Positions 6,174 through 30,898 of a stretch of 64,000 nt of DNA are shown here, piece by piece; the stretch's first letter is position 1; each line of letters starts with the position of its first letter. A program made the position numbers and the translations under genes. Under the pieces are notes generated by a model. The model had not been told where the DNA came from. It did not search any database and was given only the letters and a program-made list of their open reading frames with translations. This DNA is from Bacteroidales bacterium. GTDB lineage: Bacteria > Bacteroidota > Bacteroidia > Bacteroidales > JAIOZK01. The stretch is taken from contig JAIOZK010000004.1 in NCBI GenBank assembly GCA_021740625.1, positions 100,316-164,315 on the forward strand, given 5' to 3'.

Positions 6174-6196
6174 CTCAATATTAAATAGTGAAGGCT

Positions 6197-8636: not shown

Positions 8637-8779
8637 AAACGGTAATTAAAACATAAACAATTTGCAATAGTACTAATTTCTTTCATAGAAAAGAAAATTT
8701 CATCTTTATCTGTAGGGTTCAAATATGGCCGTCATTTGCGTTTTGCTCAGGGTGCACTTTTATTTGCTCTTGGTAATAG

Positions 8780-9640
8780 TTATCGTTTTAATAATTTAGT
8801 TGTATGTCTTTTTCTATCCATTGTAAAGTCGACGATATATAAACCACTCTTTAGATAAGAAACATCAATATTTTTTTGGGTTTTCGATAATTTTCTTTCA
8901 AATATTAAATTGCCTTGCATTGTATATATCCTGATCAAATCGTAAGATTTTTTAAAATTTATTTCTTCCATAGCCGGGTTTGGATATATGCAATGCGTTA
9001 GTAATTCATTTTCATGAATACCCGGATTTTGAGCATTCGTTTTTGCATTCATTAACTCAAGAACTGATCGGTTAGGCACATAAATTTTAAGATAATATAA
9101 ATCCAGATTACTTTTCTCAAATGCAATATAAGATGTATCTCCAAGGAATAAATTAATATTAGAATATACGCATGGTGGATAGTTTCCATAGCTCCAGTCT
9201 AAAAATTCTTCTTCGGTGGCAAGATTGTTCTGTTTATTGTAAATAGTATCGCCCCTGTTATATTTTCTTACAACAGGGGTTATCCTCGAAGTATCACGGA
9301 CCTGTCCGGTAGAATCAATAAATTGATAATTTTCTACATAAGAGGTATCGATATGGATTGAAAAATCATTTAAAGAATTTACGGACATTATATAGTAACT
9401 GCCCATTCCTCCTATGTAGCTAACCAAATAAAATTGTATATCCCATATCGTATCTTGATCTAAATCGATATAGTAATTTACAGTGATGCCAGATCCCCAT
9501 ACCGGATCATAGGAAGTTAATAATGTATCCTGAAATGGAATACTATTTCCACCTGAGCTGGGATGATCAATCACCAAAAATTGGGCATTTATGTGTCCAA
9601 TTAAAATCATTAAAAAGATAAATATCGTAATCCTTTTCAT
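8780..9640 (-). CDS. Secreted protein with a T9SS type A C-terminal sorting domain
   Basis: 286-aa ORF with a signal peptide and C-terminal IYPNPAMEEINF...LKSGLYIVDF...KLLKR, typical of Por/T9SS CTDs. Confidence 0.8.
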   Translation of the reverse strand: MKRITIFIFLMILIGHINAQFLVIDHPSSGGNSIPFQDTLLTSYDPVWGSGITVNYYIDLDQDTIWDIQFYLVSYIGGMGSYYIMSVNSLNDFSIHIDTSYVENYQFIDSTGQVRDTSRITPVVRKYNRGDTIYNKQNNLATEEEFLDWSYGNYPPCVYSNINLFLGDTSYIAFEKSNLDLYYLKIYVPNRSVLELMNAKTNAQNPGIHENELLTHCIYPNPAMEEINFKKSYDLIRIYTMQGNLIFERKLSKTQKNIDVSYLKSGLYIVDFTMDRKRHTTKLLKR

Positions 9641-9701
9641 ATTTTATTTTTTTAATTTACCGGTACATGATGGCAATTAAAATCAAACCGGATCGGTCTT
9701 A

Positions 9702-10931
9702 TTACTTAAAGTGACCCAAAATCAATTTCTTAATTTCATACATTAAATCGTGCATTAATAAATTTTGTTCATTAAAAGGCCCCATGTCATTGGGTCCTTT
9801 GGAAAAATTCCAGCAGTTGGTTAAAACAAAAACTGTAAAGTCGTTTGCCGGATCCGAATAGCATTTAACGGAAATGCCTGTGCCGTCGCCACCATGACCG
9901 TAGCCCAGTTTTTTATAATGGAATAGCCCCATTCCATAGCCGCATGAGTTGATTTGCGAAGTTGGTACACAAGCCATCATATAATTGGTTACATATGACA
10001 TTTTAATACCGGCTTCACCGCTGAGCAGCAGCTTATAAAATTTGCTTAAATCGCGGGGAGAGCTTATGATGTTTCCTTCACCAACATTCGCGGACATGTT
10101 TTGTCTGGTCAAATTAATACACTCTCCCGAAAGCCAGCCCCATGATTCAACAAAAGGTTCTGGAATCGATTGTTCATTGCCCATATCCGGGAAACTGGTT
10201 TCTTTTAATTCAAGGGGGATAATGAATTCATCCTCCATAAACTGACGGTACGGTTTTCCGCTTACCCTTTCAATTATTTTCGCCAGTAGTTGATAGCCGC
10301 TGTTGGAGTATGACCAATCTTCACCAGGCGCAAATTCATACTTTTGATGGTCGCTGATATAAGAAGTCATCAGGTCGATCGTTACTGTAAATTCGGGATC
10401 TTTTGAAAAGATGCTGTCTAGGAATCTGCTACCATCAGGCTGATTTATAAGATCATACACTCCTGCCGTATGGTTAAGCAACTGCCAAATCGTAATTTGG
10501 TCTTTGAAGGGAATATCATAGTCTTCGGTATCTGGCAAGTATGGAATTTCTTTACCAGGGATCGGTTCAATAACCAGAGAATCAAAATGAAGCAGTCCTT
10601 TTTGATAAAGTAAAACAATACCCGCAGCGGTGAAAGATTTTGTGGTGCTTTGTCCGCGAAAATGAGTAGCTTCTGAAAAGTTATCATCAATACCTTTATG
10701 GCCGAATCCGCTTTCATTGCCGTGAATAACCCGAATAGCAAAACCACCGGGAAAACCAGGATATGCTGACAGGTAATCAGAATAAGTCTGGTTTGCTATT
10801 GCCTGTACCTTTTCATTGAATACATTGTTATCAGGTTGAATATCATCCTCATTTTTTTGACATGCTGACAGGATCACAAAAGCAACCAGCAAATTGATTA
10901 ATAAAGATCTAGATAATGGTGTTTTCTTCAT
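9702..10931 (-). CDS. Serine hydrolase of the beta-lactamase / penicillin-binding fold (class C-like), lipoprotein
   Basis: 409-aa ORF with a lipobox (ILSAC), an SxxK motif (QSTTKSF) and a YSN motif (WSYSNSGYQ). Confidence 0.8.
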   Translation of the reverse strand: MKKTPLSRSLLINLLVAFVILSACQKNEDDIQPDNNVFNEKVQAIANQTYSDYLSAYPGFPGGFAIRVIHGNESGFGHKGIDDNFSEATHFRGQSTTKSFTAAGIVLLYQKGLLHFDSLVIEPIPGKEIPYLPDTEDYDIPFKDQITIWQLLNHTAGVYDLINQPDGSRFLDSIFSKDPEFTVTIDLMTSYISDHQKYEFAPGEDWSYSNSGYQLLAKIIERVSGKPYRQFMEDEFIIPLELKETSFPDMGNEQSIPEPFVESWGWLSGECINLTRQNMSANVGEGNIISSPRDLSKFYKLLLSGEAGIKMSYVTNYMMACVPTSQINSCGYGMGLFHYKKLGYGHGGDGTGISVKCYSDPANDFTVFVLTNCWNFSKGPNDMGPFNEQNLLMHDLMYEIKKLILGHFK

Positions 10932-11215
10932 ATTCTTATTTTTTCCCAGGTATCTCCGGAAAGTTTTTCCTGAATTTCAATCGTAATATTCTTAAATGCT
11001 AAACCGAAAATTTCAAATTTGGAGTTCAAAATTTTTAATTTGTTTTTGATAACGACCGTATTGTGTATCTTTCAAAAATACTAAATATCTCCTAAATTAT
11101 CAGCCTGCTATTTTTATTGGAATAATTCATTTTGAGGGCTTCCTCATTGTATACCTTTTTCAGCATGCAGAAAAGTCTTTCCTTATCAGGAAACTAGGTA
11201 TGGATCTTCAGAATA

Positions 11216-11390
11216 TCAGCTATTTTTCGAAACTTCACAACTTCATTTTTTGAAACGGCAAACTTTAAAAGACTGACTTATTATGATCACAATTTATCAC
11301 AATCCAAGATGCAAGAAATCCAGGGCAGGCCTGCAATACCTCGAAGACAAGGGGGTGGATTTTGAAATCAGGCAATACCTGAAAAAGCCC
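11216..11390 (+). repeat. Left copy of a 175-bp direct repeat (173/175 identical to 23062-23236)
   Basis: Base-by-base comparison finds mismatches only at 11230/23076 and 11348/23194. Confidence 0.95.
11283..11390 (+). pseudogene. Orphan 5' fragment (first 36 codons) of the ArsC/Spx-family gene
   Basis: MITIYHNPRCKKSRAGLQYLEDKGVDFEIRQYLKKP is identical to the start of the intact gene at 23129. It then diverges and stops at about 11460. Confidence 0.85.
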
Positions 11391-11622
11391 ATGAAAAGTA
11401 AGAAAATTGATAAGTATCTATTAATGTGCGGGATAGTTATATCCAGGAACATTAAAAAGTAGCGAAAATCGGACTTTTCTACCTCAATGTGTCCGCAAAA
11501 CAAAAAAATCATTTAAATTTGACTGTGCAGGAAATTAGTAACAGTTTTTTGTGACATCTGAAAGCGAAAAATGGTGACTTTATGGACACACTCTAACTTA
11601 TATACTATTGACTAGTTTTTCG

Positions 11623-13629
11623 ATGAGGTGGGTTTCTGGAATATTATTTTTCTTTCTCTTCCTATTGAGTATTGCAGCATATGCACAATATTCAGAACAA
11701 GAAGAAATTGACAGTTTGCAAAAATTGTTGAAAATAGTTCCCGCCGACCTTAAACCAGAAGTACTTATTAAAATCTCAAAAAAACTTGAAAAGGATAGCA
11801 ATCGTCTTGCTGAAGGTTATGTAAGGAAAGCACTTGAAATATCCTTGCATAATGAGAACATTGCTGATATTGCAAGATGCAGATACCAATTGGCACGCAT
11901 TAAAATACTGCAAGATTCAACAGTGATAGCCAAATCGATACTTAACAAATTGATCAGGGAAATAAACTCCCTTATGGTTGATAATGAGTATTTGGAAAAA
12001 ACTCTGAATCATTACCTGGGTTCATCTTACTTAATGCGATCGTATCTTTACTCGCAAAATTCACATGATAGTCTTAAAGCATCGATTTTGGATTTACAAA
12101 AGGCCCTCGCAAAATTGGATAAAAATCAGGACCCTTTTCTTTTTGCCCTGGCCAGTGGGCTTATAGCCGATTACTACTTACAGCTTGATATTTCAGATCA
12201 TGGCATAAAAAACTATAATCTGTCTCTAATGCTTTACGATTCAATTTCCGAAAAGTATTTCCTATTGCCTGTTTTGATTGAAAAAGAAAAAAAAAGATTT
12301 GATATTTTAAAAAACTATCGACAAGAATGCCTGTTTTGTGAGAATATCATAGAAGCTGATTTCAGAAGTAAAATTAAAACAAATTTGGGCTTTGCTCATT
12401 TAAAAGATGGACATCATCAGATCTCGCTTAGCTATTTTAAACAGGTTTTTAAAGATGCCATACAAGATAAAGACCGGCAACTGCGAATTTGCGCCTCAAT
12501 AAATCTGGCTTTATTCCATATGAAAACCGGGCAATATGATGAGGCAGAGAATCATTTATCCAATGCTATAGTCATTGCACGTGAAGAAGGCTTTCACAAT
12601 TTGGAAACACAAGCCAGCTTGAACCTGGTTGATGTATACCTTGCAACACAGAAATACGATCTTGCTCAAAACATGCTAAGCACCATCAATTCAATAATTA
12701 ATACAAATGATTTCAATTGTCTTTTATCGAATTACTATACCAAATTAGGGGATCTGTACTTTGAGCTTGACAATAGGGCAAAAGCACTGGAATGCTACAA
12801 AAAAACATTTGATTCACTTGTGGAAAATAGAAATTTCTATTATCAGGCTTTATTGGCAAACAAAATTCACAGTATTTACGAGCAAAGAGGTGATTACAGC
12901 AAAGCCATGAAATATTACAAGCTGTATATTACTGCAAATGATGCTCTTATTTCCTTTCAGGATAAGACATCCATTATTAAAGAAGAGATCAGGCTGGAAA
13001 TTGATAATGCAGAATCGGAATTGGGAATAATGAGAAAAAATGAGAAACTAGCCAGACTTGAGTTGAAGCGCCGAAATTTTTTAGCTACTGCTTTTTCTAT
13101 TGGTTTTGCCGTATTCTGCCTGCTTTTATTCTTTATCTGGATGTTGCGCACTAGAAAGAAAAAAGCATACAATAAGCTGATGGAAAAAAACATTGCGCTT
13201 TTGAAATCATCAGAAAACAACAAAAAGACCAAAAACGATACCGGAAAGAATTCTGATATAAATCCTGAACTGGCTTCAGAGCTAAAAAAAGGCTTCGAAA
13301 AATTCATCTACCAGCAAAAGATCTATCTTAAACCAAATATTTCTCTTGATTCATTGGCAAAAAAACTTAACACAAACTCAAACTATTTGTCCAGATATAT
13401 TAATCAAACTTATCAAACAAACTTTACCGGATACCTCAATCAACTCAGGATCAGGTATGCACAAAATTTGGTGACAAAGAAGGAGTTCCAAAATTTCTCC
13501 ATAGAAGGTTTGGCCAAAGAAGTAGGTTACAAATCAAAATCAGTTTTCAATGTTGCTTTTAAGAAATATACAGGTGTAACACCCTCATTTTATATTAATT
13601 ATATCAAAGATAAAGAAGCAAAGAAATGA
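11623..13629 (+). CDS. Transmembrane one-component regulator: N-terminal signal/anchor, TPR-like repeats, coiled coil, TM helix, C-terminal AraC-type HTH (module A, regulator 1)
   Basis: The ORF runs 11608-13629; the likely start is ATG 11623 (MRWVSGILFFFLFLLSIAAYAQ). There is a TM segment FLATAFSIGFAVFCLLLFFIWML. The C-terminus LSRYINQTYQTNFTGYLNQLRIRYAQNLV...GYKSKSVFNVAFKKYTGVTPSFY is an AraC/XylS HTH. Confidence 0.85.
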   Translation: MRWVSGILFFFLFLLSIAAYAQYSEQEEIDSLQKLLKIVPADLKPEVLIKISKKLEKDSNRLAEGYVRKALEISLHNENIADIARCRYQLARIKILQDSTVIAKSILNKLIREINSLMVDNEYLEKTLNHYLGSSYLMRSYLYSQNSHDSLKASILDLQKALAKLDKNQDPFLFALASGLIADYYLQLDISDHGIKNYNLSLMLYDSISEKYFLLPVLIEKEKKRFDILKNYRQECLFCENIIEADFRSKIKTNLGFAHLKDGHHQISLSYFKQVFKDAIQDKDRQLRICASINLALFHMKTGQYDEAENHLSNAIVIAREEGFHNLETQASLNLVDVYLATQKYDLAQNMLSTINSIINTNDFNCLLSNYYTKLGDLYFELDNRAKALECYKKTFDSLVENRNFYYQALLANKIHSIYEQRGDYSKAMKYYKLYITANDALISFQDKTSIIKEEIRLEIDNAESELGIMRKNEKLARLELKRRNFLATAFSIGFAVFCLLLFFIWMLRTRKKKAYNKLMEKNIALLKSSENNKKTKNDTGKNSDINPELASELKKGFEKFIYQQKIYLKPNISLDSLAKKLNTNSNYLSRYINQTYQTNFTGYLNQLRIRYAQNLVTKKEFQNFSIEGLAKEVGYKSKSVFNVAFKKYTGVTPSFYINYIKDKEAKK

Positions 13630-15644
13630 AGATTGCTTTCAGGCTTTCGTTTATTAAAAAACTTTTATGCAATGTTCTTTGTGTAATGATTATTTCATTG
13701 CTGTCTGGAAAAACACAAAATAACAAAAGTCTGCAATATACTTCGGATAGTTTACTCAGACTTTCCAACCTGGTTCAGAATGATCTCAAGCCTGAAGTTT
13801 ACATTGAACTATCTGACCTTTTTCTCGACTCTGATCCGGCCAGGAGTGACAGCTTTGCACTACTGGCTATGGATTGGGCCCAATATAACAAAAACCTTCA
13901 TGATCAATTAAAAAGCCAATTTCAATTAGGCAAAATAAAATACAGGCAGCAAAATTTTATGGCGTCGAAAGATATTTTCAGGGAATGGATTGTACGATTT
14001 GGTTCTGCAAACAAAGAATTAAGGAAATCAACATTATTAATGAAAAAGCATGCAGAAGCAAACATATATCTGGCTGACATTCTTGGTAGAAATTCTGACA
14101 GTCTTTCAACTGCCATTGGGTACTCATTTTCATGCAATGAAATAGCAAAGAATATTCAGGATTCCTTTCTAATTGCAAGAAGTTGCTATTCCATTGGTGA
14201 GATTTCACGTAAATTATTTATGGTTGAAAGGGCCAATAAATACTTTATTAAATCAGCAGAAATATTTGAGAACCTTAAGTTGGAAGAGTATTTAACTAAG
14301 GCATATTATGGTTTGGCCTTAAATGACCGAGAAAATCTGGAGTATATTTACAAAACCTTACGGCAATATGAGAAGCTTGGAGACTCCGCCGGTATGGGAA
14401 ATTTCCTTGTTAGTATTGCCTATATTTCAGCATCGGTAGTAAGTTTTGAGGAAGCTGTTGCTTATTATGAAAAGGCATTTGAAATCTTCAGAAAAATCAA
14501 AAACACAAGAGGCCAGGCCCATGCCAGATTCAATCTGGCCGGGCATTATCACCGCAATGGATATTTAGAAAAGGCATTGAACCTAAACGAGGAAAATGTT
14601 AAGTTTTGCCTGGAAAATAATGATAAGCTTTTTTTGGCCTATAGCCTGAAAGATCTTGCAAACGAGCATAATTTACTTGGCAGAAGAGATTCGGCCTACT
14701 ATTACTATTCAATTCTCGACACTGTTTCCAATAAGCTTGGAAATCGCACTCCTTATGTGAGATATTTATGTGGTTATGCACGTTTGCGATGGTTCGACGG
14801 CAAACATAAAGAAGCCTTAAAGTATCTCGATAAAGCAAGCCAGGAAATTGAAAAACATGGTGTTTATTATTTCAGAAGAAAAGTTGCGAGCTACCGGTCT
14901 AAAGCATATGCCGGATTGGGAGATTACGAAAATGCACTCAAATTTTACAAAAGGAGTATACATGTAAGAGATTCATTTTTTAGCCGAACCAGAATGGATA
15001 AATTAACATCACAGCAAATTAGGTATGAGGCAGAAGAAATACTAAGCGAGCTGGAAATGCTGGAAAAAGATCAAGCTTTGAAAAAGGCTGAAATAAAACA
15101 AAAGAAACAATTTGCTTCTTTTTTGGGATTGGGTATGATAATGGTACTCTTGCTTGGACTTTATGTGGTATCTCAATATAGAAAAACCAGGCTTGCATAT
15201 AACAGTCTTATGGAAAAGAACTTGAAACAGCTTGATGAAAAAAAACCCCGGCATATAAACGGGATTAATAATGGGTTGAATGAAAAAATCTTTAGGGAAA
15301 TCCAGGAATCTCTAAAAAAATGTATCAGGCAAAAAGTTTTTCTCCAACCTGATATCAGTTTAAAAAAATTAGCAAAGCTGATGAAAACCAACTCAGCCTA
15401 TTTATCAAAATTCATTAATTTGAAATATGCCAAAAACTTTACAGCCTTTATAAATGAACTTAGAATAGCTGAAGCGCAGAAACTTCTGAATAAGGATGAG
15501 TTTCAGAATTATACTGTTGAAGGAATAGCACAAGAGGTAGGCTTTAAAACAAAATCTGTCTTTAATACGGCTTTTAAAAAGAATACTGGTGTTACACCTT
15601 CATTTTATTTCAATTATCTGAAAGAAAAAAAGACAAAAACTTGA
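13626..15644 (+). CDS. Transmembrane TPR-AraC one-component regulator (module A, regulator 2)
   Basis: 672-aa ORF whose start overlaps the upstream stop (ATGA). It has a TM segment FASFLGLGMIMVLLLGLYVV and a C-terminal AraC HTH (GFKTKSVFNTAFKKNTGVTPSFY). Confidence 0.85.
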   Translation: MKIAFRLSFIKKLLCNVLCVMIISLLSGKTQNNKSLQYTSDSLLRLSNLVQNDLKPEVYIELSDLFLDSDPARSDSFALLAMDWAQYNKNLHDQLKSQFQLGKIKYRQQNFMASKDIFREWIVRFGSANKELRKSTLLMKKHAEANIYLADILGRNSDSLSTAIGYSFSCNEIAKNIQDSFLIARSCYSIGEISRKLFMVERANKYFIKSAEIFENLKLEEYLTKAYYGLALNDRENLEYIYKTLRQYEKLGDSAGMGNFLVSIAYISASVVSFEEAVAYYEKAFEIFRKIKNTRGQAHARFNLAGHYHRNGYLEKALNLNEENVKFCLENNDKLFLAYSLKDLANEHNLLGRRDSAYYYYSILDTVSNKLGNRTPYVRYLCGYARLRWFDGKHKEALKYLDKASQEIEKHGVYYFRRKVASYRSKAYAGLGDYENALKFYKRSIHVRDSFFSRTRMDKLTSQQIRYEAEEILSELEMLEKDQALKKAEIKQKKQFASFLGLGMIMVLLLGLYVVSQYRKTRLAYNSLMEKNLKQLDEKKPRHINGINNGLNEKIFREIQESLKKCIRQKVFLQPDISLKKLAKLMKTNSAYLSKFINLKYAKNFTAFINELRIAEAQKLLNKDEFQNYTVEGIAQEVGFKTKSVFNTAFKKNTGVTPSFYFNYLKEKKTKT

Positions 15645-15750
15645 TCCCGACGCTTTATCAACGGATCATTAGAGTTTTTCTTGTTGGCTGGACCATATTG
15701 TTTAACGGTATAATATACGGTCAGTCCGAAACAAAGGAAAGCTTTTCTCA

Positions 15751-15861
15751 TTTGCTCATGAAGTAGGATACAAAAGCAAATCGGTTTTCAATTCAGCTTT
15801 TAAAAAATATACCGGTCTCACACCTTCGTTTTACCTAAATTATTTGAAAGAAAACCAATGA
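15751..15861 (+). pseudogene. Remnant of a third AraC-type regulator (last 36 codons only)
   Basis: Translates to FAHEVGYKSKSVFNSAFKKYTGLTPSFYLNYLKENQ*, matching the C-termini of the four neighbouring regulators. No upstream ORF precedes it. Confidence 0.8.
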
Positions 15862-15929
15862 ATTTTTCACCAATTTTCCGTCAGGTGAGCACACATTGAT
15901 ATCTATTGTATGTTATTGTTATACTGGAA

Positions 15930-15978
15930 TTTACGCCTGTTTAAATTCATAAATCCATACATCAAAAACTTGATTTTG
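15930..15978 (+). promoter_or_regulatory. Conserved promoter-proximal motif, copy 1 (candidate operator)
   Basis: TTTACGCCTGTTTAAATTCATAAATCCATACATCAAAAACTTGATTTTG is shared with 22298-22340 (-) and 30899-30938 (-). Confidence 0.6.
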
Positions 15979-15993
15979 CACATTTCAGTATCC

Positions 15994-16001
15994 TACTTTT
16001 A
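15994..16001 (+). promoter_or_regulatory. -7-like box (TACTTTTA) for the module A structural operon
   Basis: Near match to TAnnTTTG, about 21 nt downstream of the TTG inside the conserved motif and 43 nt upstream of the ATG at 16044. Confidence 0.4.
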
Positions 16002-16043
16002 CCTCAGGAATTAAACAAATGAAAAACTAAACCAAATATAAGA

Positions 16044-16613
16044 ATGCAGAATCACAAGTACATATTTCTACTTTTCATTGTAGCAACGATATGTGCTTGT
16101 GATCTGCATTTAATACCTGAAAACAAATACCTTGGGAAATTACCAGGAATTGCAGCACGATATAAGCATGAAATAAATCAGCTTAAGAACGAAGCCGAAG
16201 CCACAGACGACTTGAACAAGGCATACAAACTGATGAAGCATGCAGAAAAAAAAGAAAAACAGGCAAACCGGGAAATTGAACAAAACTGGGAATTAATGTC
16301 AAAACCTGTCAACTTGGCTTTTGAGCAAAAATCAATGGGTGAATTTGAAATTACCGGTTTAAAAATTTCTGAAGCGAAATACAATTACCTGGTTCTTGTA
16401 GCCACAGCCATTATTAAAAAAGGTAATACTCGTTTATTTGCCAATATAGTTGCCATCGATAAAAACGGAAAAACCCTGGGTGAATCATCGGTACTAATTT
16501 CAGAAAGAAATCCAAAAAAAGGAAAAGAGTGCAGTTTTTATGGGAGTTTGAAAAACCTTGATCAATTAAGTAATTTCAGAAAAATCAGATTCTTTAAAAA
16601 GCAAAAGCCCTGA
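16044..16613 (+). CDS. Hypothetical lipoprotein (189 aa); no counterpart in module B
   Basis: Lipobox-like VATICAC, a charged coiled-coil-like N-terminal half and a beta-rich C-terminal half. Confidence 0.7.
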   Translation: MQNHKYIFLLFIVATICACDLHLIPENKYLGKLPGIAARYKHEINQLKNEAEATDDLNKAYKLMKHAEKKEKQANREIEQNWELMSKPVNLAFEQKSMGEFEITGLKISEAKYNYLVLVATAIIKKGNTRLFANIVAIDKNGKTLGESSVLISERNPKKGKECSFYGSLKNLDQLSNFRKIRFFKKQKP

Positions 16614-16671
16614 AATCATGAAAAATAACCAAAACCAATATTAATATAAATCAAACTAAAATTTTAAAATT

Positions 16672-17082
16672 ATGAAAAAATTAAACATTTTATTCGGGAC
16701 ATTAATTGCAATTTCAATCCTTTTTTTTGCTGCCTGTGGCGGTGGCGGAGCCTCAGGAAATTCTCCCTCGGGAGTGGTAGACGAATATTATGATGCATTC
16801 CAATCAGGTGACTATGAAGGCATGGTTATGCTGTTTGAAGGCAGTGAATCCTTATCAGCCGACAAAATCAAAAAGAATGCTGAGATGTTCAAAATGGGTG
16901 AATCCCAGTTAGAAGCCAGGGGAGGTATCAAAAAATTCACAGTAACTGAAGAAGAAATCAATGATGCCGGTGATGCCGCCACATTAAAAATTAAAACCAT
17001 TTATGGAAATGGAGATGAAGCTGATTCGGAAATGAATCTGGTGAAAGTGAATGGCAAATGGAAATTTAAAAAGATGTTCTAA
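16672..17082 (+). CDS. Small lipoprotein, DUF4878-like (NTF2-like fold suspected)
   Basis: 136 aa with lipobox FFAACGGGG, GVVDEYYDAFQSGDYEGM near the N-terminus and VKVNGKWKF at the C-terminus. It is roughly 70 percent identical, by eye, to the product of 30418-30828. Confidence 0.8.
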   Translation: MKKLNILFGTLIAISILFFAACGGGGASGNSPSGVVDEYYDAFQSGDYEGMVMLFEGSESLSADKIKKNAEMFKMGESQLEARGGIKKFTVTEEEINDAGDAATLKIKTIYGNGDEADSEMNLVKVNGKWKFKKMF

Positions 17083-17100
17083 GCATTGCTTTGTTATAAA

Positions 17101-17134
17101 AGGGTGCGGGAAATTCTATTCTGCACCCTCTTTT
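17101..17134 (+). terminator. Hairpin plus T-tract after the DUF4878-like gene (possible attenuating terminator within the operon)
   Basis: AGGGTGC...GCACCCT followed by CTTTTAAA. Confidence 0.4.
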
Positions 17135-17147
17135 AAACAATAATTTT

Positions 17148-19034
17148 ATGCTGAAAAAGAAACATTACATATTATTTTTGAGTTTTATCCTTTGTGCATT
17201 TCTACCTCTGACGCAAAACAAAGCACAAAATATATGCTCTTACCGGGTTAACACCAACTTACACATTTATCAGATTGAAGGCTATGCTGCCAAAATCGAT
17301 CTTTCCCTAAATCCGCTTACTTACCCCGACACCATGAAAATAAACATCGTACAACACGATCCGGATGGAGAAGAATTGCTTGTAAAATCCTGGATCATTT
17401 ATCAAAAAGAAGAAATTAATGAATTCAATAAATCCACCCAAATACTGGTTTTTGAGGATATTGGTGGATCATTGAAAGCTTACGATAGCTGGAGGGCTTA
17501 TCAAAGCGGACTAAATGGAAAACAATTAATCAGGTGGGAAAAAAAGTCTTTCAGTGTGGAACTCAACATGACGGGTTATTTTACTGCCGACCTCTACCTG
17601 CTCAAAAATAACTCCTCATATAAAATTGCCGACAACTGGTTTCGCATTATCAGAAACAGCAATGGAACCGAAAAAAAGCCCTTGCTGGTGTCGAGCCAAT
17701 ATCTTTATATGATCGGAGATAGTGTAAAAGTTCATTATGCGTATTCTGATATGCCAAAGAACGCCATCATCAGGGTATACAAATACAATAAAGATGGCAA
17801 TGTTAAATATTACAAACGTGTAGCAAAAGGAAACAATTCATTCGAACTTTACAAGACGAATGTATCAGGAAGCGGTGATGGGACTTTCACCTTTTATCAG
17901 GCCGGCAACTTCGAAATCCGAGCTTACTTTTATAGTGATGATCCAAAAACAGTAGTGGCCGGTGAAAGATTTTACATCATGGAAAATCATCTTGCAGGAC
18001 ATGATATTCCGTACATTTCAACTTGTAAATATGTGAATACCATCACAGATGAGGACAATAGAATTAGGGTGATTTATAAAGGTTTTTCCGAAAATCCACT
18101 TGCAACTGTCCAAATGCAAAAATCAAAAGGGAATGGCGACAGTAAAACACTTGCCCATCAATTGCTTGGTGGAAAAGGAAAAACATATTTTAATTTACAT
18201 GGACCCGGAATTTACGAACTCAAAGTGTATTTTGAACAGGATAAAAAATACATAAGGACTGGTTGCAGGTTCTATGTTGAGCCTATACCAGGAACCCACA
18301 CTCCAAAGCCACGGGAAGACAAAAACGAGATTCCGAATTATACAGAGGCAATTCCAATTATTGAACCGGATTTTCCAACTTACTGTTTAAACGATGTAAT
18401 CAGAATGAATTACCACAGCCTTCCTCCCGGAAATAAGACAATTGAGCTTTTTTCGGGTCCGGATAGAGTTCAACTAAAATCTATCATTGAAAAAAATGGA
18501 TCCATCAGGTATTTAAACCTTAAGGAAGGGGTTTATAAAATGAATATTGTCGATTATAAAGGAAATCATATTACCCACAAAGAATTCAAAGTTTTTGATT
18601 GTAACAACGCACCTGAAAAGATAATTGAAACAAATCCAAAACAAAAACCCGAAATACCGGCATTTGATTGTCCTATGGTACACGACAACCAAATTCCTGC
18701 AAAAAGCTTTGCCAAAGAATTCATGCATTATTTTTATAATGATCACATTTGCTATTTGCAGGCAGGAATGGGCTTTGAGGCGTACAACAAGCTTTCAGAC
18801 AAAGAAAAGGAGCAATCACTTCAAATGGTCAAATTGCTGACACATAAAGTAAACACAAAATGGGGCGGACTGGATGAAATTATCAAAGTAAAAACATTGG
18901 AATCATCCAAAAACAAATATGTTTTTGAAATTATTATACGCTATAAGAATGGAAATACCGAAAAATTTGATGAGATAAGCGTTGAAAGGTATGGAAATTA
19001 TTGGCGGGGAAGCATGAATATAAAAGCATTTTAG
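17148..19034 (+). CDS. Secreted protein with about four Ig-like repeats and a C-terminal NTF2/DUF4878-like domain (628 aa); no counterpart in module B
   Basis: A signal peptide is followed by repeated blocks of about 90-110 aa that end in similar strands (FRIIRN, RFYIMEN, RFYVEP, FKVFD). The C-terminal 130 aa resemble the neighbouring small lipoprotein in pattern. Confidence 0.75.
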   Translation: MLKKKHYILFLSFILCAFLPLTQNKAQNICSYRVNTNLHIYQIEGYAAKIDLSLNPLTYPDTMKINIVQHDPDGEELLVKSWIIYQKEEINEFNKSTQILVFEDIGGSLKAYDSWRAYQSGLNGKQLIRWEKKSFSVELNMTGYFTADLYLLKNNSSYKIADNWFRIIRNSNGTEKKPLLVSSQYLYMIGDSVKVHYAYSDMPKNAIIRVYKYNKDGNVKYYKRVAKGNNSFELYKTNVSGSGDGTFTFYQAGNFEIRAYFYSDDPKTVVAGERFYIMENHLAGHDIPYISTCKYVNTITDEDNRIRVIYKGFSENPLATVQMQKSKGNGDSKTLAHQLLGGKGKTYFNLHGPGIYELKVYFEQDKKYIRTGCRFYVEPIPGTHTPKPREDKNEIPNYTEAIPIIEPDFPTYCLNDVIRMNYHSLPPGNKTIELFSGPDRVQLKSIIEKNGSIRYLNLKEGVYKMNIVDYKGNHITHKEFKVFDCNNAPEKIIETNPKQKPEIPAFDCPMVHDNQIPAKSFAKEFMHYFYNDHICYLQAGMGFEAYNKLSDKEKEQSLQMVKLLTHKVNTKWGGLDEIIKVKTLESSKNKYVFEIIIRYKNGNTEKFDEISVERYGNYWRGSMNIKAF

Positions 19035-19092
19035 CAGAATATAATATGGAAACGAAATACAATTTAATCATTAATCCCTAAAATCAATAATT

Positions 19093-19593
19093 ATGAAAAA
19101 ACATGCATTATTAAGTCTATCACTAATCGTTGTGTTTTGCTTTGCTTTCCTGGGCAGCGAAGCTATGCCGGAAAACGACAAACAGGTTCAGGTAAAGATC
19201 ACAAAAGTGGAAAGAAATGGAAAAGAGGTTATCGTCCATTTCCAATTAAAAAACACCGGAGATCCAATTGATCTGGCACTCAAGAACAATGATGGAAGCT
19301 ATGCTCTTGGAAAAAACGGTCGCAAGTACAAACTTAAAAAGCTGGTTATTGGAAACCAGAAATCGAGCAGGCTTGTGGGCAAAAGAAGCCAAAAACTAGA
19401 TAAAAACAAATCAATTAATGGTATGGCAATTTTTGACGTTCCGGATGAAACAAATGATTTTAAAGAGATAAAGATCTCAAGCAAAAACAAGTTTTCAGCC
19501 AAATTTAAAAATGTTAAAACCAAGGACAAAAAGCCTTCGCCTTCAAAGCGATTTAAACCCAGTTCAAAAAAGCTGGAAAAACCAAGAAAATAA
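19093..19593 (+). CDS. Small secreted/lipid-anchored beta-sandwich protein (DUF4352-like, tentative) with a lysine-rich tail
   Basis: 166 aa with a signal peptide, VQVKITKVERNGKEVIVHFQLKNTG and a C-terminal K/P/S-rich tail. Paralog of 29717-30217. Confidence 0.75.
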   Translation: MKKHALLSLSLIVVFCFAFLGSEAMPENDKQVQVKITKVERNGKEVIVHFQLKNTGDPIDLALKNNDGSYALGKNGRKYKLKKLVIGNQKSSRLVGKRSQKLDKNKSINGMAIFDVPDETNDFKEIKISSKNKFSAKFKNVKTKDKKPSPSKRFKPSSKKLEKPRK

Positions 19594-19620
19594 TTTAATA
19601 TTAACCTAAACCAAATTTCA

Positions 19621-20142
19621 ATGGAAAAAAATGAAACAATTAAATCGGTAACAATGATTTTATCCGGATCGCTCCTTCAGATGTTTAACGGGATTGGTAA
19701 TGGATGGATTTCAACGCTAACTGCCATATTCGGCTTAATACTGCTGTTTATGGGATTAAGTAAACTTAAAAGAGGCATTGATGAAGCCGGGCAGGGTGCT
19801 GTAAAATTGCTTATCATTGCGGCAGTGCTTGGTATCATCGGTTTGATCCTTGATCTGATCCCATTGGTAGGCATCGTGGCCTCAATCGTCTTTATCGTCG
19901 CATTTATTGTACAATTAATTGGTGTATTAAAGCTGAAAAAATCAGAAACCATCGGTGAATCGGGTAAAAGTGGTGTAACCTTACTCCTAATTGCCATGAT
20001 ATTGGCAATTTTACAAAGTATAGTGGGCTTTGTTCCTTTTGCCGGTGGAATAGTGGCTGGAATTATTTCGCTGGTGGCCCTCATACTTTTGTTTTTCGGG
20101 TGGCTCAGAATTCAGGATGGAATTATCATCAATAATCCCTAA
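19621..20142 (+). CDS. Small polytopic membrane protein (173 aa, about 5 TM) with an internal two-helix duplication
   Basis: Roughly 85 percent aa identity, by eye, to the product of 29167-29688 despite heavy synonymous divergence. Internal repeat: LSKLKRGIDEAGQGAVKLL... versus VLKLKKSETIGESGKSGVTLL... Confidence 0.85.
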   Translation: MEKNETIKSVTMILSGSLLQMFNGIGNGWISTLTAIFGLILLFMGLSKLKRGIDEAGQGAVKLLIIAAVLGIIGLILDLIPLVGIVASIVFIVAFIVQLIGVLKLKKSETIGESGKSGVTLLLIAMILAILQSIVGFVPFAGGIVAGIISLVALILLFFGWLRIQDGIIINNP

Positions 20143-20163
20143 TTGAAATTTTCTCACTAAAAG

Positions 20164-20196
20164 AAGGCTAGCTTATTATAAGGTAGCCTTTTTTTT
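20164..20196 (+). terminator. Bidirectional hairpin terminator between convergent genes
   Basis: AAGGCTA...TAGCCTT followed by a T-run. Confidence 0.6.
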
Positions 20197-20210
20197 AAGC
20201 AATCCAGAAA

Positions 20211-21101
20211 TTAAAAACCAAGTTCTTTTATGAGTTTCTTGGCACCACTATCTTCCAGAGAAATGCATATCAATTCTTTCCCCGCTTCAAAAGATTGAAA
20301 TATTTCTTTTTCACCGTCATTTACTTTACAATTTGAAAAATTTTCACCTTCAACATTCAATACGGTAACTTTCCCAATTTCTTTTTCGCGCCTCATTCCG
20401 GCCAAAATTGAAACTTCCACAACTTTAAATTTATCACCTTTGTTAATTCCAAATTTTTCTCCAGCGGCAATCAGAACCTCTCTCGCTTTATCTCTTTTCT
20501 CATCGGTTATTTCAACAAGCAAAATGTCCAAAGGAAAATATCTTTGGATAAATATTTCCACTTTGTAATCCAGCGATTTTAAATAATCAAGCAAAGCTTC
20601 ATTGTATGATTTTTCGCTGTAGCCGGTTTCTTTAATGACCTCTGTTCCGATTATGCTACTATCGGCGACATTTATTGCGGTAATGACAAACTGCATACCA
20701 ACCTGATATTGGGTATACGTTCGTTCTCCTCCGCCGATTTGTTTGGAAGTAACGTTTTTACTATCTGTAATGATCCCTGTAATATCGCCCTTAATAATGT
20801 AATCAGCTCCCAAAGATTTTAAAACCTCATACCGGCTAAAGGTATTTACTTCCAGAGTGTCATTCTCTTTCTGAGCCAGAGCATTCTCTAGCGCATCTTC
20901 CATGACCTTTTTTTCAATCACATTGAATCTGTTGGTTTTGATAAAGGCATTGTAAACTGCTTCCCGCAGTTTCTGTCCAACCTCTGCCGGAATATTTTCA
21001 TCCCACCCAAACTTATCGATTGCGAGGTTTTCTTTTTGAGTTTGGGCATTCAGGGGAACAATGAAAAAAATCACCCATGTAAATAATAATAACTTTCTCA
21101 T
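20211..21101 (-). CDS. Periplasmic protein with a CsgG/LpoB-like N-terminal domain (tentative)
   Basis: 296 aa with a signal peptide. The pattern IDKFGW...LREAVYNAFIKTNRFNVIEKKVMEDALE resembles CsgG/LpoB-type domains. The C-terminal half is beta-rich. Confidence 0.65.
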   Translation of the reverse strand: MRKLLLFTWVIFFIVPLNAQTQKENLAIDKFGWDENIPAEVGQKLREAVYNAFIKTNRFNVIEKKVMEDALENALAQKENDTLEVNTFSRYEVLKSLGADYIIKGDITGIITDSKNVTSKQIGGGERTYTQYQVGMQFVITAINVADSSIIGTEVIKETGYSEKSYNEALLDYLKSLDYKVEIFIQRYFPLDILLVEITDEKRDKAREVLIAAGEKFGINKGDKFKVVEVSILAGMRREKEIGKVTVLNVEGENFSNCKVNDGEKEIFQSFEAGKELICISLEDSGAKKLIKELGF

Positions 21102-21142
21102 AATGTTATGTTTTGGTTTTGGTTATTTTGGATCTCAATTCA

Positions 21143-22225
21143 TTAATAGAAATAGTTTCTCCAAATATAAGTGAATATTGTGGAGATAAAGTGCTCAGAT
21201 GCATCAAAATCTGAGGTCAATCGAAGGCTGATGTCCGGATCAACAAATTCCTGACTTTGTTGATCTTTAATATATACTTTGCAAGTCCTGACACCCATTG
21301 CGTCATCGGATTTCAACTCCTGCATTTTAACCACCACCAGAACATCTTCTTTCTCAATATTTCCAGGTTTAACCGGATTTGGAACATTGGGGTTGGTCAT
21401 ACCTTGTTCTACCATCTCGATTTCATTAAGAATAGCGGCAATATTTTCACGCTCCAACACCTTCAAACCGGGAATTTTAGAAAACATGCGTGTTAATTTT
21501 GCTTGAATTCCCTTCAAAAGACTTTGGCATCTATTATCATCCTCACATCCATCTATGATTACGGCAACTGCATCCCGTTCAGGCTTTTCAGCAGTATAGT
21601 GTGTTGGTGTAATATTTACATGTATGCATTGAGTCCTGTTGTTAAATTTATCTCTATCAACCCCAACCATATGTTGTACAGTGGTTTTGCTAACTGCCCG
21701 CCAAACAAGATGTTCAAGTTTGTCCCAGGTTACACTGTTTATTATGGTTTCCTCGGGATTTGAGCGGTATCGTCCTCCCTTATACGGGATATTCTCAAAG
21801 CTGCAGGAAGCAATTTTCATTTCCTCTACATGTGCTTTTTCCCTGTTTGGAACACTGTATCTTACATAGGAATAATCGATATCGATGTTATTAATGCTTT
21901 TGCGGTCTTCTGAAAGCGTACCATAAAAAGAAGCAATCTCCTCTGCTACTGACTGCTTATTTATTTTCATTCCACTAAAATCATTGCCATCAAGACGCAT
22001 GTCATTCACACTAAAATAAAAGCCAAGGACTGTATTATATTCATCCCGAATTTTCCTGACATTTCCGTTACTGAACTTTTTTGTCTTAACTATTTCTTTC
22101 ACTTTTGACGGTACACTAACCGTAATATAACATTTTCGAAATTCAGCTTGAGCGAATCCATAGATTTGAAAAAAAAATGCATTTAAGAAAATCAAAGTGA
22201 ATAAAAATCGGAATTGTGTTTTCAT
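21143..22225 (-). CDS. Secreted hypothetical protein with a C-terminal CsgG-like segment (tentative)
   Basis: 360 aa with a signal peptide. AVAVIIDGCED...KIPGLKVLERENIAAILNEIEMVEQG resembles the CsgG-family core motif. Confidence 0.65.
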   Translation of the reverse strand: MKTQFRFLFTLIFLNAFFFQIYGFAQAEFRKCYITVSVPSKVKEIVKTKKFSNGNVRKIRDEYNTVLGFYFSVNDMRLDGNDFSGMKINKQSVAEEIASFYGTLSEDRKSINNIDIDYSYVRYSVPNREKAHVEEMKIASCSFENIPYKGGRYRSNPEETIINSVTWDKLEHLVWRAVSKTTVQHMVGVDRDKFNNRTQCIHVNITPTHYTAEKPERDAVAVIIDGCEDDNRCQSLLKGIQAKLTRMFSKIPGLKVLERENIAAILNEIEMVEQGMTNPNVPNPVKPGNIEKEDVLVVVKMQELKSDDAMGVRTCKVYIKDQQSQEFVDPDISLRLTSDFDASEHFISTIFTYIWRNYFY

Positions 22226-22268
22226 TATGATTATTGGTTTTTATTTATAAAATTGTGTTTGATGATTC

Positions 22269-22276
22269 CAAAATTA
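22269..22276 (-). promoter_or_regulatory. -7 promoter box (TAATTTTG on the minus strand) for the 22225-20211 operon
   Basis: Exact TAnnTTTG match 43 nt upstream of the start at 22225, downstream of conserved motif copy 2. Confidence 0.5.
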
Positions 22277-22297
22277 CATATTCAGAAAGCTTCAATA

Positions 22298-22340
22298 CAA
22301 ATATTTGTTGTATGAATTTATGAATTTAAACAAGCGTAAA
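22298..22340 (-). promoter_or_regulatory. Conserved promoter-proximal motif, copy 2
   Basis: The minus strand reads TTTACGCTTGTTTAAATTCATAAATTCATACAACAAATATTTG, matching copy 1 at most positions. Confidence 0.6.
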
Positions 22341-22569
22341 CAGTTGATTTTATTCTTTTTGAGAATAATATACAATAAGTCGACTTTTGAAAGTATAATT
22401 AACATAAAAATGACTTAACTTAGAAACTTTTATCTTGTATATGGGTTTTATCATTTAAACAAACTAAAATCAAAGAACCAATGGTTTTCGCGGTATATGG
22501 AGGCATAGCAATGATTTGCGACTTTATAATATTACTGTTTTTTTAACAAAATTTGTTGTAACCACATGC

Positions 22570-22606
22570 AATTAAAACAAAAACACACCCTTGCTGGCGT
22601 GTGTTT
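22570..22606 (-). terminator. Intrinsic terminator downstream of the acyltransferase remnant
   Basis: The minus strand reads AAACACAC-loop-GTGTGTTT followed by TTGTTTTAATT. Confidence 0.55.
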
Positions 22607-22688
22607 GTGCCTAAATTCCGTAAGTCTCGGGGTAACTTATTCATTTATCAAAAATCAAAAAAAAGTAACCCCAACTCAAACTTTAGTT

Positions 22689-22929
22689 TTAAGTTAAGCC
22701 CGTTCCGTTTTCAACATTTTTCACAAGCTCATAAATATACCTGGCCATATCCGCACCGTCAACAACATCATGATCCATTAAAACTGTCATGTTCATGATA
22801 TCTCTTATCTGGATTTGTTTGCCAATTACCCTGGGTTTTTGAATGAACCGGTTCCAGAAAACTGCTCACATGATGTTTGCGCTTACCCATTTCGCAAACA
22901 TCAATGCTTACAATGCGGGAGGCAGGGAA
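22689..22929 (-). pseudogene. 3' remnant of a 2-oxoacid dehydrogenase E2-type acyltransferase-like gene, frameshifted
   Basis: The minus strand encodes ...VIGKQIQIRDIMNMTVLMDHDVVDGADMARYIYELVKNVENGTGLT*, which carries the DHxxxDG catalytic motif context. The upstream part (VSIDVCEMGKRKHHV) is in another frame, and no N-terminal two thirds is present. Confidence 0.5.
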
Positions 22930-23061
22930 TAAGTTCGTATTAAGTATTTATTAACCGCAAAGCGCGCAACCTACTTGCAAAGAGCGAAAAGAATTTGATT
23001 TGCTTATAACCTTATTACAACTCCAGGGATCAATTCGTGATATTTGCGGTGGAGTCTTTTT

Positions 23062-23236
23062 TCAGCTATTTTTCGTAACTTCACAACTTCATTTTTTGAA
23101 ACGGCAAACTTTAAAAGACTGACTTATTATGATCACAATTTATCACAATCCAAGATGCAAGAAATCCAGGGCAGGCCTGCAATACCTCGAAGATAAGGGG
23201 GTGGATTTTGAAATCAGGCAATACCTGAAAAAGCCC
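23062..23236 (+). repeat. Right copy of the 175-bp direct repeat
   Basis: See 11216-11390. Confidence 0.95.
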
Positions 23237-23470
23237 CTGAGCAAAGATGAATTGAAAAGCTTGCTGACCAAAATGAACAAAAAACCCCATGACATCATCC
23301 GCACGCAGGAGGAAAAGTACCGCAAGGAGTTGAAAGGAAAGAATTTTTCGGATGAGGAATGGATCAGCATCCTGGTGGAGAACCCCAAACTGATGCAACG
23401 ACCCATCGTGGAAAAAGAATACAAGGCTGTCCTTGCCCAGCCACCCGAAAATATTGACGAACTTCTATAA
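23129..23470 (+). CDS. ArsC/Spx/YffB-family protein (arsenate reductase-like thioredoxin fold)
   Basis: 113 aa. The N-terminal IYHNPRCKKSR carries the conserved Cys context, and PKLMQRPIV is also present. Confidence 0.85.
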   Translation: MITIYHNPRCKKSRAGLQYLEDKGVDFEIRQYLKKPLSKDELKSLLTKMNKKPHDIIRTQEEKYRKELKGKNFSDEEWISILVENPKLMQRPIVEKEYKAVLAQPPENIDELL

Positions 23471-25466: not shown

Positions 25467-25988
25467 ATGCCAAAGCATCATTATTTAAGTATTGACTTCA
25501 GAAGAGAAAGCTTGACACATATTCTTTACTCCCTTGAATATGGCATTCAAAGTTTAAGGTTATTTAATAAAGAGTTTAAATATTATGATGGATTATGGCT
25601 GTTGGAGGAATCTGAACCAATGTTTGGTTTGGCATTTATTGCCTTGCAAAACTATGTTAACGGAAGCATATATGACAGGTACAGAGATTTAAAGGAGCAA
25701 AACTTATTTTATAAAGAAGGTAGGATCGTCAAAGACTCTGGAAGGACTGATATTGAGCTTATAGTTGCCCTTGCAAATTATTATAAGCATAGAGATCACC
25801 CAAATGAACTGTTTGAAGCAACAAGATCAGTTCTTGATGATTTTGATTTTCGATATGATAAATTTGATGACATAACTATGTCTCCCTTAATAAAAGGTAT
25901 CGAATTATTTTCTAATACCTGGAGTCTGCCTGCAATGATTGAAGTTGTCTCAACTTGGAGAAAATCATTATGGGATAATTCTTCTTAG
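25467..25988 (+). CDS. Orphan hypothetical protein (173 aa), AT-rich
   Basis: Clean ORF in an 890-bp gap between convergent genes. I recognise no motif. Confidence 0.5.
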   Translation: MPKHHYLSIDFRRESLTHILYSLEYGIQSLRLFNKEFKYYDGLWLLEESEPMFGLAFIALQNYVNGSIYDRYRDLKEQNLFYKEGRIVKDSGRTDIELIVALANYYKHRDHPNELFEATRSVLDDFDFRYDKFDDITMSPLIKGIELFSNTWSLPAMIEVVSTWRKSLWDNSS

Positions 25989-29109: not shown

Positions 29110-29143
29110 AAAAAAAAACGGCTGCTTATTCAAAAACAGCCGT
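29110..29143 (-). terminator. Intrinsic terminator ending the module B operon
   Basis: The minus strand reads ACGGCTG-loop-CAGCCGT followed by a T8 run. Confidence 0.7.
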
Positions 29144-29688: not shown

Positions 29689-29716
29689 TGTAAATTTGGT
29701 TTAGGTTAATATTAAG

Positions 29717-30217: not shown

Positions 30218-30417
30218 AATACTGGTTTTAAAATTAATAAAATTAATATATATTGACACCCATAATATTTTTTTTCTCTGAATTTTTTACATTGCTTTCA
30301 TATCCAGACTTCCCCTTCAAAATTCCTACATTTGATTATTTATGTTTTTAAATGTCTCAGGATCAAAGCAATGGCAGGCTGAAAAAGAGATATATCCGTT
30401 TCAACCTGCCTGGATTA

Positions 30418-30884: not shown

Positions 30885-30898
30885 GGTCCGCAGGAAAG

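Follow-up and report, generated by a model that had tools for sequence, protein, structure and literature searches.

Within a 64,000-nucleotide (nt) stretch of a Bacteroidales bacterium contig (the window; L-numbers denote the other loci compared with it) we have analysed two related gene sets, module A on an AT-rich island and module B at 29167-35058, and on balance both are probably clade-restricted local regulons of membrane-tethered one-component regulators. Each module contains two overlapping genes for regulators with a tetratricopeptide repeat (TPR) array, one transmembrane (TM) segment and an AraC-type helix-turn-helix (HTH) domain, and the operons next to them share a near-palindromic 24-mer, TGTnnRRATTYATRAATYYnnACA, which stands at a fixed distance from the promoter boxes and is found again, together with the gene order, in other species.

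In the proposed model each module would encode two translationally coupled one-component regulators, each made of a cleavable signal peptide, a periplasmic TPR domain of about 450 residues, a coiled coil, one TM helix and a cytoplasmic AraC double HTH. Since this DNA-binding domain would be tethered to the inner membrane, the regulators are expected to reach nearby DNA only. From linkage and position we infer that they bind the 24-bp operator, which abuts the -33 box of a sigma-A-type promoter in the manner of a class II activator, and that the bound regulators switch on the adjacent operons. The core output would be a DUF4878 NTF2-like lipoprotein, a small beta-sandwich protein whose tail is cationic and a six-helix inner-membrane protein, to which module A would add another lipoprotein, a large periplasmic protein rich in beta structure and a pair of periplasmic proteins of the CsgG/LpoB domain type. 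The two regulators of a pair (reg1 and reg2) would probably act as a heteromer, and since the periplasmic parts of the four regulators are 19-34% identical and their HTH domains 58-67%, modules A and B may differ in the periplasmic cue, a peptide or a protein, to which they respond and yet have almost the same DNA-binding logic, with slightly different operator flanks. The physiological output might be envelope remodelling or protection. If this wiring is true it would provide the first regulon and operator for the TPR-TM-AraC regulator family and an entry point to three envelope protein families that are so far uncharacterised, and the locus is a compact case for it, with a 24-bp operator, a fixed geometry, a small output set and two modules that differ in the sensor and barely in the DNA-binding domain. 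If it is not true, the locus would be another clade-specific patch of hypothetical envelope genes.

Regulators, operator and synteny

The regulator genes of module A lie on the plus strand. A_reg1 (11608-13629, with TTG at 11608 or ATG at 11623 as start codon) encodes a signal peptide, TPR, a coiled coil, one TM segment and an AraC double HTH, and A_reg2 (13626-15644) has the same architecture, its start overlapping the stop of A_reg1 by ATGA. The TPR-TM-AraC genes of module B are found on the minus strand, where the stop of B_reg1 (33019-35058) overlaps the start of B_reg2 (31004-33022) again by ATGA. The initial annotation had described the module A proteins as paired TPR-TM-AraC sensors and indeed both carry TPR and HTH_18/HTH_AraC domains above the Pfam thresholds; all four regulators belong to the AraC/XylS family, with HTH_18 scores of 51-64 bits against a threshold of 33.6. 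Hydrophobic segments at residues ~8-26 and ~492-516, basic residues after them and a C-terminal HTH place the proteins in the class of membrane-bound one-component regulators, a topology predicted by hydropathy only. By this prediction the TPR array of ~450 residues is periplasmic and the HTH cytoplasmic, because each protein has one hydrophobic segment near its N-terminus and one TM segment, the latter with basic residues after it. The TPR/TM region of A_reg2 resembles the FimS sensor (NCBIfam NF053520; E 2.6e-17, 62.3 bits against a cut-off of 600), and as the match covers this region only and kinase domains are absent, the protein is not a FimS-type sensor histidine kinase. Nor do the regulators belong to the ToxR/CadC family, since no Trans_reg_C-type match was obtained and their DNA-binding domain is AraC-type and C-terminal. 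Relatives of the regulator are present in many Bacteroidota genomes, and in the literature searched no characterised TPR-TM-AraC regulator was found.

A promoter motif common to the structural operons had been noted before, and we find it at three sites in the window. At the promoter of the operon that starts with the lipoprotein gene lip189 (15938-16001, plus strand) the operator TGTTTAAATTCATAAATCCATACA (15938-15961) is followed after 8 nt by the -33 box TTG (15970-15972) and after another 21 nt by the -7 box TACTTTTA (15994-16001). The promoter of the minus-strand operon for a 360-aa and a 296-aa protein (the 360/296 operon; 22269-22332) has the operator TGTTTAAATTCATAAATTCATACA at 22332-22309, TTG at 22300-22298 and the -7 box TAATTTTG at 22276-22269, and that of module B (30868-30939, minus strand) has the operator CGTACAGATTTATAAATCCGAACG at 30939-30916, TTG and the -7 box TACATTTA with the spacing of module A. 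Five promoters from three species all follow the order operator, 8 nt, TTG, 20-21 nt, TAnnTTT, the two boxes being what we take to be the Bacteroidetes -33/-7 promoter type, and when these five promoter regions are aligned, in intergenic DNA that is otherwise unalignable, the invariant columns are mainly those of operator, TTG and -7 box. In the three window operons 83-88 nt separate the operator from the start codon, and the distance from operator to ATG is 66-89 nt in the five promoters and at the L064 site described below.

The 24-mer consensus, which was built from the tested sites themselves, gave 4 perfect matches and 10 with up to two mismatches in 1.06 Mb (the window plus the non-redundant fetched loci), compared to 0 and 1.2 in Markov simulations. 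A 22-nt pattern derived from the two A sites occurs twice in the window with 0 expected in shuffles, and a stricter 16-mer is confined to module loci among the 63 loci. No operator is more than 7 kb away from a regulator gene of this subfamily, and as a rule it comes immediately after the stop codon of that gene or after a regulator stub. The operator flanks are of an A type at both A promoters and of a B type at module B and its L017 orthologue. A scan for sigma-70 promoters and terminators, with a model that does not cover Bacteroidetes promoters, showed no enrichment over shuffles. A 43-nt stretch of the 360/296 promoter is 88% identical to the lip189 promoter, and because both A promoters have it in common, the 360/296 operon was probably recruited through duplication of the promoter.

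The recurrence of the core described by the initial annotation is borne out: reg1, reg2, the DUF4878 lipoprotein, the beta-sandwich protein and tm173, a 173-aa membrane protein, follow each other in the same order on the minus strand at 29167-35058, with identities between modules A and B of 34%, 38%, 69%, 57% and 86%, respectively. In module B the regulators are followed by the DUF4878 lipoprotein gene (30418-30828), the beta-sandwich paralogue (29717-30217, 166 aa from ATG) and the tm173 paralogue (29167-29688) with a terminator hairpin after it (29118-29143), all on the minus strand. The genes for lip189, a 628-aa protein and the CsgG-like proteins are add-ons of module A and stand outside the core.

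The earlier case for a unit had also been made to depend on the genes occurring together in other genomes, and the whole core is present in the same order in L017, the GTDB representative of an uncultured Bacteroidales species. The order there is reg1, reg2, DUF4878, an NTF2-tail protein, beta-sandwich and tm173, with identities to module B of 67% (reg1), 71% (reg2), 80% (DUF4878), 49-51% (beta-sandwich) and 87% (tm173); the protein after DUF4878 has 399 aa and over its final 146 residues resembles the C-terminal end of the 628-aa protein (41%), and operator and promoter boxes show the same spacing. In A, B and L017 alike reg1 and reg2 overlap by ATGA, that is, gene order and overlap are retained while the identity of the regulators goes down to 27-38%. 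In L016, a locus of another organism, the genes for the NTF2-tail protein, the beta-sandwich protein and tm173 are present, as is the downstream neighbour of module B. Because of the core synteny of L017, and the partial module and shared downstream neighbour of L016, module B is the ancestral chromosomal locus, from which the NTF2-tail gene was lost in the window organism, and module A is a diverged and expanded copy. In L018, a metagenome-assembled genome of the Lentimicrobiaceae, a regulator is followed by an operator and by a homologue of lip189 with which it shares 27% identity; a second operator is perfectly palindromic and a third site lies upstream of the regulator gene. The L018 regulator itself (1115-3164) is split into two open reading frames (ORFs; 1115-2695 and 2700-3164), which points to a pseudogene with a frameshift or to a fault in the assembly.

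The 173-aa membrane protein falls into 63 clusters, every one of them from uncultured Bacteroidales or Bacteroidota, and in eight other lineages it is a solo gene in unrelated contexts. One of these, in L064, has a perfect 24-bp operator (1868-1891) 82 nt upstream of it, and in L005 a half-site (9800-9817) is found 185 nt upstream of the solo gene, adjoined by a convergent TPR-AraC gene. As a separate observation, in L010 (717-783) and likewise in L011 the DUF805 RNA motif (Rfam RF03081, 72.9 bits) stands immediately before a tm173 homologue, and in L005 it precedes a TM2-domain gene, so in some lineages tm173 may be under the control of this uncharacterised cis-regulatory RNA.

Several points weigh against reading the modules as local regulons. 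The assignment of the operator to the regulators rests on linkage and position, and the operator could belong to another factor; the HTH recognition helices and the operator variants show no clear covariation. The duplicated 43 nt are recent, so the two A sites are not independent. Since many AraC domains act as monomers on asymmetric sites, the palindrome is no proof of a dimer or heteromer. Solo tm173 without an operator is found in at least six other lineages, so the link to the regulator is not universal, and the output proteins give no direct functional clue. The co-regulated unit proposed by the initial annotation stands in silico, through the common operator, the fixed geometry and the synteny, and it is confined to a very narrow clade, with the multi-gene module in only three lineages.

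Island and gene products of module A

Island A (11395-23061, 35% GC) was correctly described as repeat-bounded: a 179-nt direct repeat, 98% identical between its two plus-strand copies, flanks it at 11216-11394 on the left edge and at 23062-23240 on the right. The repeat contains the promoter and the first ~45 codons of an ArsC/Spx-family gene, which is intact on the right (23129-23470, the repeat being its 5' part) and truncated on the left, where the coding part (11283-11394) goes out of frame. An integrase-mediated origin was considered and set aside, as the repeat duplicates the 5' end of a target gene but no integrase, transposase or recombinase was matched by Pfam among the ORFs of 7359-23061. 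The GC content is 35.0% for the island and 37.5% for module B (29167-35058), compared to 43.5% for the rest of the window, and the L017 module (8720-15757) has 39.3% in a host of 51.6%, hence the modules are AT-rich in two species.

All nine ORFs listed earlier are present, namely the overlapping pair that encodes the TPR-TM-AraC regulators and seven further genes whose products are exported or lie in the membrane, and the claim that every product is exported or membrane-embedded holds as well, since besides the lipoproteins every other product has an N-terminal signal-like hydrophobic segment or is polytopic. The island also contains decayed sequences. Directly upstream of the lip189 promoter and 3' of A_reg2 lies the stub of a third regulator (15673-15858, plus strand), consisting of the last ~62 codons of an AraC HTH, which suggests that module A is a mosaic of regulator-plus-target cassettes. 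At the right end the remnant of a 2-oxoacid dehydrogenase acyltransferase C-terminus (22689-22796, minus strand; annotated from L013) represents decayed cargo.

The first structural gene, lip189 (16044-16613, plus strand), encodes the 189-aa lipoprotein that had been predicted, with the lipobox cysteine at position 19 (Cys19), a helical N-terminal part and no family match. It is followed by the DUF4878 lipoprotein gene (16672-17082, plus strand; 136 aa, NTF2-like, lipobox Cys22), for which the earlier family label proved right: the A copy scores 30.3 bits and the B copy 31.4 bits with PF12870 (an NTF2-like family; gathering threshold 24.1), and the A copy matches PDB entry 3K7C at E 4.9e-5. 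A metagenome scan with the DUF4878 alignment, for which the peptide patterns chosen were too unspecific, gave one irrelevant locus among the matches listed. Directly 3' of this gene a hairpin at 17101-17129 (plus strand; -19.8 kcal/mol, z = -4.0) is a possible attenuator or partial terminator, and it has a counterpart in module B at 30373-30410 (minus strand). A hairpin after DUF4878 in both modules suggests that the lipoprotein is made in excess of the products of the downstream genes, which, as a speculation, would agree with a role of the lipoprotein as feedback partner of the TPR domain in the periplasm.

The 628-aa protein (17148-19034, plus strand) is exported and beta-rich, and its N-terminal ~480 residues are unique to the species; its sole match among 5.8 billion proteins is itself. 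About four Ig-like repeats and an NTF2-like end had been proposed for it. Of the repeats only R2 and R3 (residues 177-288 and 291-388) are alike (z = 7.8), as seen only by a shuffle-calibrated alignment since a BLAST self-comparison gave no matches, and the others are not significant. The C-terminal ~146 residues form an alpha+beta domain that is conserved in L016 and L017 and weakly DUF4878-like, the score of 19.2 bits being below the threshold. AlphaFold2 without an alignment reached a predicted local distance difference test score (pLDDT) of 35.6, which was unusable for a fold search.

The beta-sandwich-like protein (19093-19593, plus strand; 166 aa, exported) has the Lys/Pro-rich tail that had been described, while its label as DUF4352-like is below threshold in both copies: with PF11611 (gathering threshold 25.9) the B copy scores 20.8 bits (E 5e-4), and the A copy matches only DUF5067 with 15.4 bits. 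In a set of 1.84 billion representative proteins its family numbers three. The most conserved component, tm173 (19621-20142, plus strand), is an integral membrane protein which, instead of the four TM helices proposed at first, has six helices in three hairpins in its model (pLDDT 92.8, 58 homologues). A Foldseek search of this model against the PDB gave no match with E <= 0.001, the best TM-score of ~0.5 belonging to rhodopsin-like bundles and being uninformative, and the DUF4870 scores (PF09685, gathering threshold 25) of 17.0 bits (A) and 20.4 bits (B) are both sub-threshold.

On the minus strand follow the exported 296-aa protein (20211-21101) with a CsgG/LpoB/TolB_N-like domain at residues 35-116 and no lipobox, and the exported 360-aa protein (21143-22225) with a CsgG-like signature at residues 225-280. 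They had been called two convergently transcribed CsgG/LpoB-like proteins. The domain assignment stands for ~80 N-terminal residues of the 296-aa protein, which score 22.8 bits with CsgG and 25.3 bits with LpoB, above the threshold of either Pfam family, and is sub-threshold for the 360-aa protein (CsgG 13.3 bits against a threshold of 20.8); the two show no BLAST similarity to each other. Both genes converge on the plus-strand operon and not on each other. A terminator-like hairpin between the convergent operons (20159-20195; -17.5 kcal/mol, z = -2.85) has its U-run on the plus strand, the fold of the minus strand being weaker (z = -1.54).

That none of these products has an assignable function was confirmed, as Pfam, NCBIfam, PADLOC, PHROGs, sequence searches against the PDB and Foldseek gave nothing specific; the PDB sequence searches had no match for the lip189, beta-sandwich, 296-aa and 360-aa proteins.

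Outside the modules, an Rfam scan of the window matched no family. The release factor 2 gene (6188-7286) has a programmed +1 frameshift site, CTT TGA C, at 6257-6263, where a 24-codon ORF stops at the in-frame TGA and the PCRF/RF-1 domains carry on in the +1 frame. Between the genes for a fumarase and a PMT-type glycosyltransferase lies another ORF of 173 aa (25467-25988), which is matched by neither Pfam nor PADLOC and lacks a signal peptide, and the gene calls in other contigs of the organism (L012, L013 and L015) have a same-sized ORF at this position. Cobalamin riboswitches are present in L017 (6148-6336) and L003 (2356-2573), upstream of clusters of TonB-dependent receptor, DUF4465 and type IX secretion system cargo genes that adjoin the loci compared here by chance.

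Alternative explanations

The strongest alternative comes from the Flavobacteriia relatives of the regulator. At 28 of 59 Flavobacteriia regulators a small ORF whose product has an LxLxKx5L...GG leader and a core rich in Cys, Ser and Thr is found ~100-600 nt 3', and 28 of the 35 LanA-leader-like ORFs in 755 kb sit just 3' of a regulator, in ~2.5% of the searched sequence. Such a leader is that of Bacteroidetes class I lanthipeptide precursors (PMC7268733). Precursor-like ORFs 3' of a regulator were recorded at L019, L024-L027, L032-L036, L039, L041, L042, L044, L046, L047, L052, L053, L055 and L059, and in L025 (6013-20390), from an uncultured Aquimarina, seven TPR-TM-AraC regulators stand in tandem, six of them each with its own precursor-like ORF. 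Most of the ten Flavobacteriia loci that were read have a palindrome of 20-26 bp between the regulator stop and the precursor-like ORF; the operator core of the window is not enriched 3' of the distant Flavobacteriia regulators (2 of 46), where these other palindromes are found. Genes with Lant_dehydr_C, LANC_like or Peptidase_S8 domains lie within 10 kb at 11 of 44 Flavobacteriia loci. The pairing of regulator and precursor suggests that the periplasmic TPR domain senses exported peptides, and its one-to-one nature could point to peptide regulation in the phylum.

Carried over to the window, this would make the modules peptide-sensing immunity or resistance cassettes, in which the TPR domain detects an antimicrobial peptide, for example a lanthipeptide of neighbouring bacteria, and the lipoproteins and the membrane protein bind or exclude it. 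Such cassettes would be analogous to the orphan LanI/LanFEG- or Bce-type modules of the Firmicutes, and lipoproteins and small multi-helix membrane proteins are the usual classes of bacteriocin immunity proteins. Besides the leader ORFs and lanthipeptide genes at the Flavobacteriia loci, the fast divergence of the sensors next to a conserved HTH would fit, as would the low GC of the cassettes in two species, the location of module A on an island and the proposal that DUF4878 and DUF4352 are extracytoplasmic ligand binders (PMC3924330). Nevertheless, lanthipeptide precursor-like ORFs are absent from the window and the Bacteroidales loci, and no LanB or LanC domain was found in the Pfam-scanned ORFs between 3927 and 37123, so the modules are not part of a class I cluster. 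The output proteins have no homology to a known immunity protein and do not occur in the Flavobacteriia clusters, an ABC (ATP-binding cassette) transporter is not present, and the Flavobacteriia regulators are 25-45% identical to those of the window, mostly in the HTH region. We therefore regard an immunity function as doubtful. Equally tentative is the wider idea that TPR-TM-AraC proteins are Bacteroidota-wide periplasmic receptors fused to a transcription factor, an extracytoplasmic counterpart of RRNPP and LanRK, which in Flavobacteriia would autoinduce their own precursor and in the Bacteroidales clade described here would have come to control an orphan sense-and-protect cassette giving immunity to peptides of competitors, with the different copies recognising different peptides.

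It could also be argued that there is no functional unit at all and that the locus is a fast-evolving, AT-rich accessory patch shaped by segmental duplication, with a motif that has simply persisted from a common ancestor. The components are orphans or nearly so, the island contains decayed fragments (the regulator stub and the 2-oxoacid dehydrogenase remnant), tm173 occurs alone elsewhere and the 43-nt duplication common to both A promoters is recent. But an orthologous module exists in other species, gene order and ATGA overlap have been kept at 27-38% regulator identity, only the operator, the -33 and the -7 box persist with fixed spacing in unalignable intergenic DNA, and the solo tm173 of L064 has its operator at the same distance of 82 nt. 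We consider this explanation improbable.

The remaining two suggestions came from the initial annotation, and neither gained support. A curli-like or other surface-matrix assembly around CsgG-type secretion proteins would agree with the Pfam scores of the 296-aa protein and with the export of all its partners. However, its CsgG match covers only profile positions 30-103 of 210, it lacks a lipobox cysteine and partner genes, and its TIGR02722 score of 16.4 bits is far below the cut-off of 110, so it is neither a CsgG channel nor an LpoB. With the 360-aa protein below threshold, no amyloid-subunit-like or CsgE/F-like genes present and the CsgG-like pair absent from module B, L016 and L017, matrix assembly is very improbable. 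An anti-phage or contact-defence system, for which the low-GC island and the weak DUF4352/DUF5067 similarity of the beta-sandwich proteins may be cited, as DUF4352 takes part in the defence mediated by the mycobacterial phage-resistance protein Mpr (PMC12596739), is scarcely credible, given that the DUF4352 matches are sub-threshold, that the PADLOC matches (TPR-repeat, PDC-M13A at E 0.02 and 'putative invertase' at E 0.0013) are weak and deemed non-specific, that PHROGs gave no informative match, that viral contigs have no relatives of tm173 or the 296-aa protein and that neither a nuclease/NTPase domain nor defence genes nearby were found.

Comparison with known systems

Read as local regulons of membrane-tethered regulators, the modules are functionally closest to ToxR/TcpP, CadC and the VtrA/VtrC co-component cassettes, and they are a member of none of these. 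With ToxR/TcpP, and also CadC and PsaE, the regulators share an extracytoplasmic sensor, one TM helix and a DNA-binding domain, as well as the action on nearby promoters, and ToxR and TcpP are likewise paired membrane regulators at one promoter (PMC8546550, PMC11323476). The topology is reversed here, with the sensor N-terminal and the DNA-binding domain C-terminal, the latter being an AraC double HTH in place of an OmpR-type winged helix; a large TPR array serves as the sensor, and there is no sequence relationship. VtrA/VtrC (PMC9214523) resemble the pairs in their overlapping genes, in two membrane proteins that are proposed to be an obligate pair, in fast-evolving periplasmic parts and in being narrowly distributed cassettes that control adjacent genes. 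In contrast to them, both partners are complete regulators here, each with its own HTH, a lipocalin-like VtrC is absent, and phylum and folds are different.

For the output proteins, DUF4352 has been found fused to DUF4878 and linked to TPR, and a joint recognition of extracellular ligands was proposed (PMC3924330). In the modules the two are separate genes, of which the DUF4878 protein is a true family member and the DUF4352 assignment is sub-threshold.

On the sensing side, the coupling of TPR sensing to an HTH output is analogous to RRNPP proteins (Rap/NprR/PlcR/PrgX) and LanRK. The RRNPP proteins are cytoplasmic, have an N-terminal HTH_3 and sense re-imported peptides, and LanRK are two-component systems. 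The likeness extends to the Flavobacteriia, where the regulator gene neighbours a gene for a secreted-peptide precursor, whereas in the window there is no peptide gene, and the TPR domain of these regulators is periplasmic. A relative of the input module is found in the same phylum: the FimS-type kinases of Porphyromonas gingivalis (NF053520) have a similar periplasmic TPR and TM part, to which the regulators described here have an AraC HTH fused in place of the histidine kinase.

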